Shown piece by piece: positions 51,193 through 54,903 of a stretch of 64,000 nt of DNA. The translations under genes were made by a program, and so were the position numbers. The stretch's first letter is position 1, and each line of letters starts with the position of its first letter. This DNA comes from a virus. The notes under the pieces were generated by a model. It was given only the letters and a program-made list of their open reading frames with translations, had not been told where the DNA came from and made no database searches. Location: IMG/VR virus record IMGVR_UViG_3300045988_181996. One strand, written 5' to 3'.

Positions 51193-54100
51193 TTATTTTA
51201 ATTTAGCACAAGCAGAACATGTACAAAATTTACCATCGTTTATATGTTGCACAGCTAAACTTGCATCTTTAATAGAAATGTCACCACTAAAAATTGGATC
51301 ATTATAATAAGTGGTCATTAATGAATCATTATTATCATGTTGTAAACCAAAAATGTGACCAATTTCATGTTTTAAAACTTTTTCTTTACTAATTTGTGAT
51401 CTAATAGCATCTGTATTCAATTGAACGATATAATTAGCTTTGTTTAATACGTCTTTAGATTTTATACCACTACGTGAATATTTATCATTACTATCAGCAT
51501 CAACTAAATCAACTGTCGATGTTTTAGTCATTAAACCTGCTAATTCAGTCATTTCAAATCCATAATCATCATCTGTATCAACAGATAACCAACCTTTGTC
51601 TACACGAGTTGTTTGATTATCAGAATCTAAAAAAGCAATATCAACATTATCTTTTAAAGAAGTATATGAATAATTGAAAATAATATTATGTTTTTTAAAT
51701 GCTAATTTCCAATCATTTAAAGCTTTATCAACTTCAGATTTTAAAGTTTCATCAGCATAAACTTTAATATTAACAACTTTATCTTTTATTTTTAATTCAT
51801 TATCAACAATTCTTGTTATTAAACTATTATTAGATGCTGAAATTTTTTCAATAGGTTGTGTTGTTTTCACAATTAAAGTATTACCTGAACTTGATTTAGA
51901 ATTTGTTGTAATAGTTTTTACAATTAAACTATTAGCAGAACTTGATTTAATTCCATCAAGTTGTTTAACAACTAATGTATTACCAGAACTTGACTTAACA
52001 CCATCTACACCTTTAACAACTAATGTATTACCTGATGCAGATAATTTCGTAACATCTTTTAATTTTTTAACTATAAAACTAGTATTTGATGATACACGTT
52101 TTAAATTTTCTTTCTCGTTAGCAACATTTGGCAATAAAATTTTGTAATTTAACTTATCCAATAAACCTTGTGCATCTCTTGGTACTCCAATTATTTCAGC
52201 TTTAACATCTTGAAGATTATAATTTCCTTCAGTGTGTGCTTTAACATTTGGTGTATTAACCTCAATAGTATCAACATTAGCATTAACTTTTTCTAATGAT
52301 AGACTAGGTGAACCACCAATAATACCCCATGGGTTAAATAATGAAACGTCAATACTTTGATATGAACCACCATGACCAATACCAACTGTACTTTGTCCAG
52401 TAATCATTACTGAGTTTTCATCTAAGTTAGCACCTGAAGCTAATCCATTAATTTGTGGAACATTTGAATCTAATGCCATGTAGTCGCCACCATCACGAAT
52501 TTTTGGAGCGTCACTACCTGATAATATAATATCTGTATTAGTTCCATAAGTATCTTTATATACATACATTATTTGGTTATCATCAATATCTGAGATATAT
52601 AATGGTGAACGTTTTGTACCTTCTCCAGCACCTTCATCCACACGAACTTCAAATGTTGTCCATAAACCAACTCTCTTATACGGGTTAGCATTTGGATTCA
52701 AATATGCTATTGGTGAAAAATATTTATGACTTGCTAATGTTTCTGTATCATTATATTCTCCTGCAAGCCCACCATTAGTTCCTAGACGCAACGCATTTCC
52801 GTTCTCACCAGTAGAACCACCACCACCATTTGTACCATTACCTTGTAATATGTGACGGTAATAACCTACACCTGTTAATACTTTACCAGTTTTAGGATCT
52901 ACAGATAAATAGTATAGGAACATAAGTCTACTATTCCCTGGTAAATCATTTGGAAACTTACTTCCATGGAATGGCATAGCATGCATTGTTAGTGATAGTG
53001 GATATGTTTTTGGTTTACCATTTTCATCATATGTCACATATGAGTCTTTAAAATCAAATGTAATATGATCTTGATAACTTGCTACTAAGAACACATTCTC
53101 ATTACCAACGTAATTAATATGTTGATTCCTAATATCTGAGAATACAGCTTCTCTATAGATATTATGACGTTGCGTACCAGAAACCCAAGCTCTTGCACCT
53201 ATATAATCCAAGATACCTTGAGCACCACCCTTGAATTTTTGTGAATTGGCAACTTTTCTACCACGCACTGTTACAAAATCATTAATATTTTTGCTCGGTA
53301 CCATGACAGAACCAAATGCACCTTTTAGACCTTTTTCACTATCAGCAATCCATTGTGCAGCTGCAATATTAGCAATTGTTTTACCTTCTTTAGCATACTT
53401 AAGAGTCATATTTGGACCAAGTTCCTGTGACCCAGTAAATACACCCTCTGTACTTTCAGCTGTTTGTTTAAGTGCATCTTCTACATATTTTTTATATTTT
53501 CCTGAAGTGTCTTCACTATAGATTGGACGAGTATTTAACCAAGCTTCATCTATTTGAGTAGAAGTACCACCTTTATCAATACCTTCAATATATTTTTTAA
53601 TTCTTTCAATGTTGTTTTGAATAACAGGTTCTACTTTAGCTAAACTTTCAGCATTTTTAGTTTTTAAATTATCTAATGAACTACCAACAGATGCATTAAT
53701 TTGACTACTTGCATTATCCATTAATTTTTGAATCTCGCTAGTTTCACGACCAATGTCACCGAAATCTAAATTACCAATTGCATCAATTTTACCTACAACA
53801 TTAACTTTAACTCCAGATTCATCAATAGTAGCAATAGCTTTATCAATGTCTTCTAACATTTTTGTTTTAACTTTTTCAGGTTTATCAGATTTTGATACTT
53901 TATCTTTTAATTTAATTAATTCAGCTTTTTGTTTTTCTTTATATTCGTTAATTAATGTACTAGCTTTAGAATTTTTTTCAACATCTTCTTTTACTTTGTT
54001 AGTTTGATTAGACGCACCTTTTAACCAAGTATTAATTAATTCCATATTTTTAACAGCATTATCAGTATATGTTTTAGATTTAACAACTTCTGCTTCATTC

Positions 54101-54903
54101 AACTTACGAATTTCATTTACTTGTTTTAAAACTTCTGCTTTTTTCGATTCAATATCTACTAAAGATTCCACAGAATTATCGATGTTTTTAGTTGTTTTTG
54201 TAATCACATTATCTAATTTTGTTTTTGATGTATTAACCTTCAAACCACTATCTTTAGATACTGTTTCAGCTTTTTCATTTAATGCTTTAACATTTTTTAA
54301 CACACCATCAACATAATGATCATCTAAACTTGTTAAATTAGCTAATTCTTTATTTGCATTAGCAATCGCATCATTATAATTTTTTGAAAACGTAGCTGAA
54401 CTATTTGAAACAGCATGTTCGCTTATTACATTATCATTTGATTCAATTATATCTTTACGTTGTTCAATAATATTATTTAATTTATTCGAGACATCTTTTA
54501 AATTTGTTAAATCAACATTAATAACATCATTATCTCTTTCATTATAACCAATGTTAAACTTTTTAGCGTTACTATCTAAAGATTTAAATTTAACATCTTG
54601 TTTTTCTAATTCATTTAATTTTTTTTGTAGCTCAACTAACTGACGTTTAACATCTTCTTTATTAGTTTCAGTAATAACTAAATCAGTTTTTGCAACTTCA
54701 ACATTTTTATAATTCCTAGAAATATTATTAATTAATTTATTAATTGTATTAATATCTTCTTGTAAATTATTTCCTTCTTTTATAATTTCACCACTTGCAC
54801 CTTTTTCTGTTGTTCTTACAACTTCAGCTTCAGCATTACCAACAGATGCAATTGCTGTAAAACTTGTTAATGCTCCACCTAATAATATTTTTGTTTTTGA
54901 CAT
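51193..54903 (-). CDS. secreted 1236-aa protein with C-terminal metzincin zinc-peptidase domain and SGNTLVVK tandem repeats
   Basis: Signal peptide 'ALTSFTAIASVGNAEA'. 'HEIGHIFGLQHDNNDSLM' (HExxHxxGxxH + Met-turn). Four repeats 'SSSGNTLVVK'. Confidence 0.7.
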   Translation of the reverse strand: MSKTKILLGGALTSFTAIASVGNAEAEVVRTTEKGASGEIIKEGNNLQEDINTINKLINNISRNYKNVEVAKTDLVITETNKEDVKRQLVELQKKLNELEKQDVKFKSLDSNAKKFNIGYNERDNDVINVDLTNLKDVSNKLNNIIEQRKDIIESNDNVISEHAVSNSSATFSKNYNDAIANANKELANLTSLDDHYVDGVLKNVKALNEKAETVSKDSGLKVNTSKTKLDNVITKTTKNIDNSVESLVDIESKKAEVLKQVNEIRKLNEAEVVKSKTYTDNAVKNMELINTWLKGASNQTNKVKEDVEKNSKASTLINEYKEKQKAELIKLKDKVSKSDKPEKVKTKMLEDIDKAIATIDESGVKVNVVGKIDAIGNLDFGDIGRETSEIQKLMDNASSQINASVGSSLDNLKTKNAESLAKVEPVIQNNIERIKKYIEGIDKGGTSTQIDEAWLNTRPIYSEDTSGKYKKYVEDALKQTAESTEGVFTGSQELGPNMTLKYAKEGKTIANIAAAQWIADSEKGLKGAFGSVMVPSKNINDFVTVRGRKVANSQKFKGGAQGILDYIGARAWVSGTQRHNIYREAVFSDIRNQHINYVGNENVFLVASYQDHITFDFKDSYVTYDENGKPKTYPLSLTMHAMPFHGSKFPNDLPGNSRLMFLYYLSVDPKTGKVLTGVGYYRHILQGNGTNGGGGSTGENGNALRLGTNGGLAGEYNDTETLASHKYFSPIAYLNPNANPYKRVGLWTTFEVRVDEGAGEGTKRSPLYISDIDDNQIMYVYKDTYGTNTDIILSGSDAPKIRDGGDYMALDSNVPQINGLASGANLDENSVMITGQSTVGIGHGGSYQSIDVSLFNPWGIIGGSPSLSLEKVNANVDTIEVNTPNVKAHTEGNYNLQDVKAEIIGVPRDAQGLLDKLNYKILLPNVANEKENLKRVSSNTSFIVKKLKDVTKLSASGNTLVVKGVDGVKSSSGNTLVVKQLDGIKSSSANSLIVKTITTNSKSSSGNTLIVKTTQPIEKISASNNSLITRIVDNELKIKDKVVNIKVYADETLKSEVDKALNDWKLAFKKHNIIFNYSYTSLKDNVDIAFLDSDNQTTRVDKGWLSVDTDDDYGFEMTELAGLMTKTSTVDLVDADSNDKYSRSGIKSKDVLNKANYIVQLNTDAIRSQISKEKVLKHEIGHIFGLQHDNNDSLMTTYYNDPIFSGDISIKDASLAVQHINDGKFCTCSACAKLK

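Follow-up and report, generated by a model that had tools for sequence, protein, structure and literature searches.

On the Enterococcus faecalis plasmid pCF10 the surface protein PrgA (Sec10) uses a helical stalk to hold a protease-like domain ~40 nm from the cell wall, has an active-site-dependent role in surface exclusion and is needed to process the antigen I/II (AgI/II)-like adhesin PrgB (10.1101/2020.06.18.156562). This principle, a stalk protease that regulates mating aggregation and exclusion, has so far been one of enterococcal pheromone plasmids, and we found no paper in the literature linking metzincins to Gram-positive conjugation. A second point of reference is Sgo0707, whose N1 domain is V-region-like and mediates collagen and keratinocyte binding (PMC3656908), and a third is the Inocles, giant oral elements that are reportedly carried by most people, have ~95% of their genes without an assigned function and are all reported to encode VirB4 (PMC12340149). 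Here we describe a gene for a secreted multidomain protein of 1236 aa with a metzincin-type zinc protease domain, hereafter the M10 protein, at 51193..54903 (minus strand) of a 64,000-nt stretch of DNA from IMG/VR record IMGVR_UViG_3300045988_181996 (the window; GC ~27%), and compare it with these systems.

The exported protein and its metzincin domain

The gene runs from an ATG to a stop codon at 51193-51195 in the ORF (open reading frame) list and its translation, and the original prediction of a secreted 1236-aa protein at 51193-54903 was borne out. An identical protein (P0001) is present on two metagenome contigs of 170 kb and 38.6 kb. Residues ~1041-1236 (51196..51783; all further coordinates within the gene are on the minus strand) make up the catalytic domain, which carries the zinc-binding motif HEIGHIFGLQHD at residues 1179-1190 (H1179, E1180, H1183 and H1189; 51334..51369) and, 40 residues before the C-terminus, the Met-turn methionine Met1196 within SLMTT (51316..51318). 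The metzincin consensus HExxHxxGxxH/D, the Met-turn and the fold (twisted beta-sheet, active-site helix and C-terminal helix) are all present. The zinc-motif positions (H160, E161, H164 and H170 in alignment A2) are invariant, as are L176, M177, T178 and T179 of the same alignment, and the 'LM' is kept in the whole M10 family. Pfam Peptidase_M10 (PF00413) matches residues 1075-1201 marginally, with 27.5 bits against a cutoff of 24 (E 3.3e-6), while the competing Reprolysin_5 (24.1 bits) falls below its cutoff of 27 and further Reprolysin families score weaker. By Foldseek the closest structural match of the domain is karilysin of the oral pathogen Tannerella, and the modelled domain is closest in structure to snapalysin and the matrix metalloproteinases (MMPs). 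Together, the sequence and the model strongly support a catalytically intact minimal metzincin zinc endopeptidase.

A metzincin near the C-terminus is what had been predicted, on the understanding that catalytic residues not conserved in homologues, or another fold, would speak against it; the zinc motif and the Met-turn are confirmed, His, Glu, His, His and Met are kept in all intact homologues, and structure prediction returns a metzincin fold. The accompanying label 'matrixin/astacin-like' is right as to the metzincins and too specific as to the subfamily, given the adamalysin-type HD and the missing prodomain: no Cys-switch motif PRCGxPD of matrixins occurs in the M10 protein. In the matrixin signature HxxGLxHS a Ser follows the third zinc-binding His, as in MMPs, whereas adamalysins have Asp there, likewise Asp1190 of the M10 domain; across the M10 family this residue is D, N, K or S. 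The only cysteines of the 1236-aa protein form a CxCxxC cluster within its last 10 residues (C1227, C1229 and C1232; 51208..51225), found in many but not all M10 relatives, which may bind an additional metal or act as a latency switch at the C-terminus.

At the other end of the protein, residues 1-26 (54826..54903) read as a Sec signal peptide: by eye, the N-terminus MSKTKILLGGALTSFTAIASVGNAEA followed by EV is typical, with an AxA cleavage site and predicted cleavage between AEA and EV. There is no lipobox, LPXTG or transmembrane segment in the 1236 residues. An AlphaFold2 model of residues 37-1236 has a mean pLDDT (predicted local distance difference test) of 64 and a pTM (predicted template modelling score) of 0.42, and its domain packing is unreliable. 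Within it, residues ~46-446 (53566..54768; pLDDT mostly 60-90) form long helices with short beta insertions and are highly charged (16% K+R, 17% D+E), and residues ~486-906 (52186..53448; pLDDT 70-88) form a beta-rich globular head. In a Foldseek search of the PDB this head matches 4igb (E 5e-5, prob 1.00) and the A3VP1 fragment of Streptococcus mutans AgI/II, 3ipk (E 6e-4, prob 0.87), with modest TM-scores of 0.28-0.36. No sequence-level PDB or Pfam match was found for the head, and no Pfam match at all across the first 1000 residues. Because of the modest TM-scores and the lack of a sequence-level match we call the modelled head adhesin-type, resembling the Sgo0707 N-domain and the AgI/II V-region, rather than a member of the AgI/II family. 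The protein comprises, in order, a signal peptide, a ~400-aa helical region, a beta-sandwich head, a disordered linker with SGNxLVV[KR] motifs and the metzincin, and it is strongly supported that the product is a Sec-exported, unanchored modular surface or secreted protein.

The linker (residues 938-1031; 51811..52092) holds five to six copies of the motif [KR][TS][AS]SGN[ST][LF]VV[KR] with a period of ~17 in a motif scan; the repeat is degenerate, with a unit of 9-10 residues. Five are clear (SASGNTLVVK, SSSGNTLVVK, SSSANSLIVK, SSSGNTLIVK and SASNNSLITR) and one is degenerate (SSNTSFIVK); they are spaced 16-19 residues apart, and a 48-nt tandem repeat in the DNA covers three of them. The array was noticed from the outset as four SSSGNTLVVK repeats; the array itself stands, while its number and identity do not, the exact string occurring a single time in the M10 protein. 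In all six frames of the window the motif is confined to the M10 ORF. Among 20 family members the consensus is [KR]-[TS]-[ASG]-S-G-N-[ST]-[LF]-[VT]-V-[RK] with a period of 17 (range 16-18), the Asn is invariant in 82 copies from 20 proteins, and the SGN..VV columns are invariant among homologues down to 31% identity; this conservation is far beyond chance.

The repeats had been likened to wall-binding modules, a comparison that did not hold up: the M10 protein has no choline-binding, LysM, SH3b, GW, SLH, CWB2 or other Pfam match of that kind at E up to 1, the linker is predicted to be disordered (pLDDT 25-30), and only 1.1% of its residues are aromatic. Since a short, beta-prone motif is strictly conserved inside a variable disordered linker, docking or processing sites are expected rather than folded wall-binding repeats. 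As the M10 protein is without an anchor, we infer non-covalent docking through beta-strand addition, with self-cleavage at the SGN motifs as a possible alternative. A motif common to neighbouring proteins, as joint docking or cleavage sites would have it, was rejected, for in each locus it is restricted to the M10-protein family. Three small proteins (P0090, P0093 and P0094) carry the SGN motif together with M10, a co-occurrence that ties the motif to the protease or to a shared partner.

One gene slot, three architectures and a conserved block

The family has so far surfaced only in metagenomes. Neither the PLSDB plasmids (megablast and tblastn) nor the INPHARED phages (tblastn) contain a match to the M10 gene, and no relative of the protein occurs among the 185,579 species-representative genomes of GTDB. 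A word-indexed search of 5.8 billion proteins returned 84 relatives, every one of them assembled from a metagenome, the longest of their contigs reaching ~260 kb. An exhaustive HMMER scan of 1.84 billion representatives with an M10 profile returned 63 proteins at E<1e-3 (36 below 1e-30). About 25 of the 63 are 1118-1830 aa long with the M10 domain at the extreme C-terminus, and beyond these the scores drop abruptly to generic metzincins. All intact members keep HE.GH.FGL.H, the LM Met-turn and FTG.I[ST]; the N-termini of the complete giant members resemble signal peptides, and LPXTG occurs in none. The M10-family records originate from human oral metagenomes, and in ten divergent family clusters that were checked no member has a name or an NCBI or UniProt accession. 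Apart from these, two orphan short M10-like genes of this subfamily (L097:5001-5486 and L096:3923-4474) sit in unrelated chromosome-like contexts; one adjoins ribosomal protein and TIR/SEFIR/kinase genes, and the other is without the zinc motif.

The M10 module occupies one fixed gene slot in three architectures. It is fused in the window gene and its 170-kb contig. In the split form a protein of 997-1004 aa ends right after the repeats and a separate 219-aa M10 ORF follows 11 nt later, and a second split lineage, only 33% identical, has a 1035-aa protein plus an M10 ORF. The solo form is a 353-aa protein with nothing but a signal peptide, a single SSSNDTFVVRK copy where the mature protein starts, a spacer of low complexity and M10. 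Giant proteins without M10 account for ~33 of the 84 search hits, and in every such locus examined a separate M10 ORF follows directly. These separate ORFs have an intact active site and are under strong purifying selection (dN/dS, the ratio of nonsynonymous to synonymous substitution rates, 0.03-0.11). Taken with the three architectures, this selection identifies the protease as the constant part and the stalk-head carrier as optional.

In all eight split-type loci (L003:12980-13075, L004, L089-L093 and L087:4270-4400) the M10 ORF lies in the -1 frame relative to the giant ORF. At the junction the Lys codon of an A-run abuts the stop (GTA AAG TAA or TCA AAA TAA), the -1 frame is open across that stop, and both the frame relation and the slippery A_AAG or A_AAA beside it are conserved in two distant lineages. 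The separate M10 ORF has no Shine-Dalgarno (SD) sequence in the split-type relatives, and L087 encodes the fold's first strand and helix ahead of any start codon. These junctions could reflect programmed -1 frameshifting. An old 1-nt indel with reinitiation fits equally well: the junction aligns colinearly with the linker of the fused form, just what the gain or loss of one nucleotide would leave behind, and the main split lineage offers an ATG or GTG as start codon. About 26 nt inside the M10 ORF of L003 (13029-13050), and at homologous sites in L089, L091 and L093, lies a 9-bp hairpin, CCCAGCGCU-GAAA-AGCGUUGGG, which is unusually stable (z -5.4), is 100% paired in all four sequences and contains two compensatory pairs that arose from synonymous changes. 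With four sequences its conservation is suggestive. It lies 37 nt from the slip site, too distant for a classical frameshift stimulator, and is absent from the fused gene in the window.

The protease gene is the last of four that stay together. Upstream of it in the window are, all on the minus strand, genes for a 104-aa protein with two transmembrane segments (55030..55344), a 1226-aa polytopic membrane protein with about six (55461..59141; syntenic in five lineages) and a 708-aa soluble protein (59141..61267). The sizes of this trio across lineages are ~660-708 aa (soluble), ~1150-1360 aa (polytopic) and ~105-120 aa (two transmembrane segments), and in all lineages examined a gene of 94-135 aa fills the position of the 104-aa protein. 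With identities of 23-51%, the trio is syntenic with the M10 gene in every lineage examined, two very divergent ones included. Searches of Pfam, NCBIfam and the PDB, whether with single sequences or with profiles built from orthologues, give no match for the trio, and what looks like a Walker A in the 708-aa protein is not kept by its orthologues; the trio cannot be named VirB4, VirB6 or VirB3, the first two of which we considered and dropped. The trio looks to be a conserved membrane complex of no known family. It is strongly supported that the genes for a soluble (~680 aa), a polytopic (~1200 aa) and a two-transmembrane protein (~110 aa), followed by that for the M10 protein, form a conserved block of four in which the protease is the module that evolution holds constant. 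It is likewise strongly supported that the block sits among the conjugation and adhesin genes of a family of giant (100-330 kb) plasmid-like elements, low in GC and sampled in human oral metagenomes.

A proposed role at the cell surface, and alternatives

We tentatively favour the idea that the M10 protein is displayed at the cell surface and cleaves surface proteins at a cell-cell or cell-host interface, an idea that draws on analogy and that we put at a little short of an even chance. The stalk and head are an optional delivery module: the head would target the protein to a ligand on a partner cell, a host surface or a co-encoded adhesin, and the linker motifs would dock it non-covalently by adding a beta-strand. 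The metzincin would cleave surface proteins, most likely the co-encoded adhesins of the AgI/II type and the SSSPR-51 LPXTG type or their counterparts on other cells, which would tune aggregation, mating-pair formation or surface exclusion. Processing of mating adhesins is the version we prefer, and by analogy with PrgA it is plausible.

Several observations weigh against this proposal. The connection to conjugation is drawn from gene neighbourhood; the window has no recognisable VirB4, VirB6 or VirB8, and the block may serve a different envelope system. PrgA itself is LPXTG-anchored and has a CAP domain, making the analogy one of function and not of homology. The split-type M10 ORF has no signal peptide, so an extracellular role is awkward for it unless frameshifting or a special export route intervenes. 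The TM-scores of the head match are modest (0.33-0.36), and with the low full-length pTM the modelled geometry between the domains is unreliable. Finally, the M10 gene has its own terminator and the downstream SecA paralog its own promoter, and the two need not be co-regulated.

If the protein instead serves colonisation of the host, with no relation to DNA transfer, its gene would be cargo for a combined adhesin and protease: the head would attach to oral epithelium, collagen or salivary pellicle, and the enzyme would break down host proteins such as matrix, mucin or immunoglobulin, in the manner of karilysin or the zinc proteases of streptococci. The human oral origin of the records, the resemblance of the head to the collagen and keratinocyte adhesin Sgo0707 and the structural proximity of the domain to karilysin all suit this possibility, and the SecA paralog, S26 signal peptidase and several adhesins of the element fit a surface-remodelling cargo. 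Tight and universal linkage to three conserved genes is, however, what one would sooner expect of a part of a machine than of independent cargo, and one lineage dispenses with head and stalk yet keeps the protease, so that we regard host-directed action as possible, if rather unlikely. Retention of the protease also bears on the proposal that the giant protein is a structural spacer or surface-exclusion barrier whose protease is vestigial or merely processes the protein itself at the SGN motifs. That ~33 of 84 hits lack M10 would agree with a spacer, and motifs placed directly N-terminal to M10, with one at the mature N-terminus of the M10-only form, are compatible with processing in cis; but a separate M10 ORF with an intact active site and under strong purifying selection is found in every M10-less locus examined, and a vestigial domain would not survive in three architectures, which makes this proposal distinctly improbable.

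Wall remodelling was raised by the original prediction, in which the metzincin was to be the missing VirB1-type activity; it would replace a peptidoglycan hydrolase and cut peptide cross-bridges during assembly of an envelope-spanning apparatus. The absence of CHAP and lytic transglycosylase domains on which this was built is real: the scanned ORFs of the window and the Pfam annotation precomputed for related loci show neither these nor NlpC/P60, SLT, LytM or glucosaminidase domains, and at E up to 1 the M10 protein itself matches none of the domains (SLT/lysozyme-like, CHAP, NlpC/P60, LytM, glucosaminidase) that mark VirB1-like wall hydrolases such as PrgK, TraG, TcpG and CwlT. The argument drawn from it loses its force, as recognisable VirB4, VirB6 and VirB8 are missing from the window too; where a whole mating-channel module is unrecognisable or absent, and probably elsewhere, a missing CHAP or SLT domain carries little weight. 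The element measures at least 170 kb, and outside the 64 kb of the window it may hold VirB4 and a hydrolase module. In type IV secretion system (T4SS) operons of Firmicutes the wall hydrolase genes (CwlT, Orf14, TcpG and PrgK) adjoin genes of the VirB4/VirB6 type, and the M10 gene always stands behind those for a large polytopic and a small two-transmembrane protein; its 353-aa solo form also matches T4SS wall hydrolases in size. This positional argument is weak, however, because the upstream genes are not recognisable as VirB4 or VirB6 even with profiles and the Walker A is unconserved. Known peptidoglycan metallo-endopeptidases belong to M23 or M15 (LAS), we know of no metzincin that acts as a peptidoglycan hydrolase, and stalk and adhesin head would put the enzyme away from the wall; we consider wall remodelling improbable. 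A bolder combination, in which M10, the upstream trio and, in most lineages, the SecA paralog form an undescribed envelope apparatus, the metzincin replaces the peptidoglycan hydrolase as the first wall-acting metzincin, and some lineages fuse the carrier by -1 frameshifting at A_AAG/A_AAA in a fraction of the molecules, is a long shot.

The wider window and comparison with known systems

Directly downstream of the M10 gene a divergent SecA paralog of 778 aa is encoded (48738..51074, minus strand; SecA_DEAD 1.4e-72 and PPXD). Its 396 bits fall far short of the SecA cutoff of 862 and of every SecA2 cutoff, and the SecA or secA2 genes that exist on known large plasmids are at most 35% identical to it. 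It follows the M10 gene in L001, L003, L005, L087 and L095 and does not in L094. An intrinsic terminator-like hairpin lies directly 3' of the M10 stop codon (51163..51184, minus strand) and a perfect TTGACA-18-TATAAT promoter at 51105-51134 precedes the paralog, and by virtue of this terminator and promoter the two genes are separate transcription units. A further terminator-like hairpin with a U-tract, GGAGAGGTTTAACCTCTCC, occupies the 5' leader of the M10 gene (54933..54951, within 54923-54951, minus strand), ~20 nt before the SD sequence GGAGG and the ATG; given this hairpin the gene would be expressed by read-through from upstream, which suggests control by attenuation or antitermination. 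With the paralog the element may bring its own export ATPase, and an S26 type I signal peptidase (13801-14388, minus strand; E 1.5e-39) and a flotillin/SPFH protein (9970-11463, minus strand) together with it suggest a private secretion toolkit.

The conjugative context that had been proposed for the gene is upheld by what lies nearby: a MobL-type relaxase, a VirD4-type coupling protein, a topoisomerase and AgI/II and LPXTG adhesins. The AgI/II homologue is encoded ~10 kb downstream of the M10 gene (38295-41573), and the window also encodes an SSSPR-51 LPXTG protein (45607-47739) and the single-stranded DNA-binding protein SSB. By its gene content the window is a Gram-positive element's module for conjugation and surface functions, and the mating-channel module probably sits elsewhere on the same element, whose length is at least 170 kb. 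A ClpB-like double-AAA ATPase (765 aa) and the short MobL-type relaxase whose end it overlaps (285 aa; both within 30916-34048, minus strand) make an unusual pair for a transfer region. Two IS605-family TnpB genes lie on the minus strand at 38-1276 and 11924-13102, and directly 3' of the second is a RAGATH-18 RNA (11803-11887, minus strand; 69 bits), placed where a TnpB guide RNA would be expected. We did not use TnpB to assign a host, its best match (82% aa, in a metagenome-assembled genome of an uncultured Gemella) being a weak hint in which only the insertion sequence is common (81% nt over 1.28 kb).

The element is possibly related to the Inocles, with which it shares an oral, plasmid-like character, VirD4, an S26 signal peptidase, LPXTG proteins and the lack of isolate genomes; Inocles measure 245-395 kb with a GC content of 24-32%, compared with ~27% in the window, and their description, which covers 29 genomes and reports Streptococcus salivarius colonies with Inocle_004, mentions neither SecA nor a metalloprotease (PMC12340149). 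The InoC marker (454 aa, PF13814) has no PF13814 match in the ~40 ORFs that were scanned in the window, itself a 64-kb part of the larger element (at least 170 kb). The catalytic domain is 13-20% identical to snapalysin (M7) and to matrixins and karilysin (M10A); it has His where snapalysin has Asp as the third zinc ligand, and differs from both groups in the family-specific FTGxI[ST], the frequent CxCxxC and its adhesin-like carrier. With the AgI/II adhesins SpaP and SspB and with Sgo0707 the M10 protein has in common a helical region, a structurally similar beta-sandwich head and the oral Gram-positive setting. Among the A-repeats, V-region, P-repeats, C-terminal domains and LPXTG of AgI/II only the V-region has a counterpart in it, in the structure of the head. 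It differs from that family in lacking the Pfam AgI/II domains, the P-region, the C-terminal DEv-IgG domains and LPXTG, and in that its C-terminal end is an enzyme and not an anchor.

The likeness to PrgA is one of design. Both genes lie near an AgI/II-family adhesin gene, in that part of a Gram-positive conjugative element which carries its adhesin and conjugation genes. Both proteins have a signal peptide and a long helical stalk, together with a small protease-like domain that PrgA keeps at a distance from the cell, as the M10 protein would. PrgA differs in its CAP domain, proposed Ser nucleophile and LPXTG anchor, and is without an adhesin head or SGN repeats; neither the CAP domain nor the LPXTG of PrgA/Sec10 is found in the M10 protein, which leaves the design principle as all that is common. 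If the M10 protein does process the co-encoded AgI/II-type adhesins, the stalk-protease principle of PrgA and PrgB would extend to an unrelated class of protease and to uncultured oral elements, and if it acts on host proteins the oral microbiome would have in it a mobile factor for colonisation or virulence. In either case many divergent elements have kept the enzyme in the same gene block and joined to a targeting module of adhesin type, and the family offers a testable handle: an identifiable enzyme for which inhibitors are known and catalytically dead mutants (E1180A) are easy to make, and, in its fused, split and solo variants, a natural experiment on domain fusion. Individually the metzincin, the adhesin head and the helical stalk are of known kinds; what is new is their combination, the metzincin fixed to this gene block on giant oral elements, the fused/split/solo modularity and the SGN motif.

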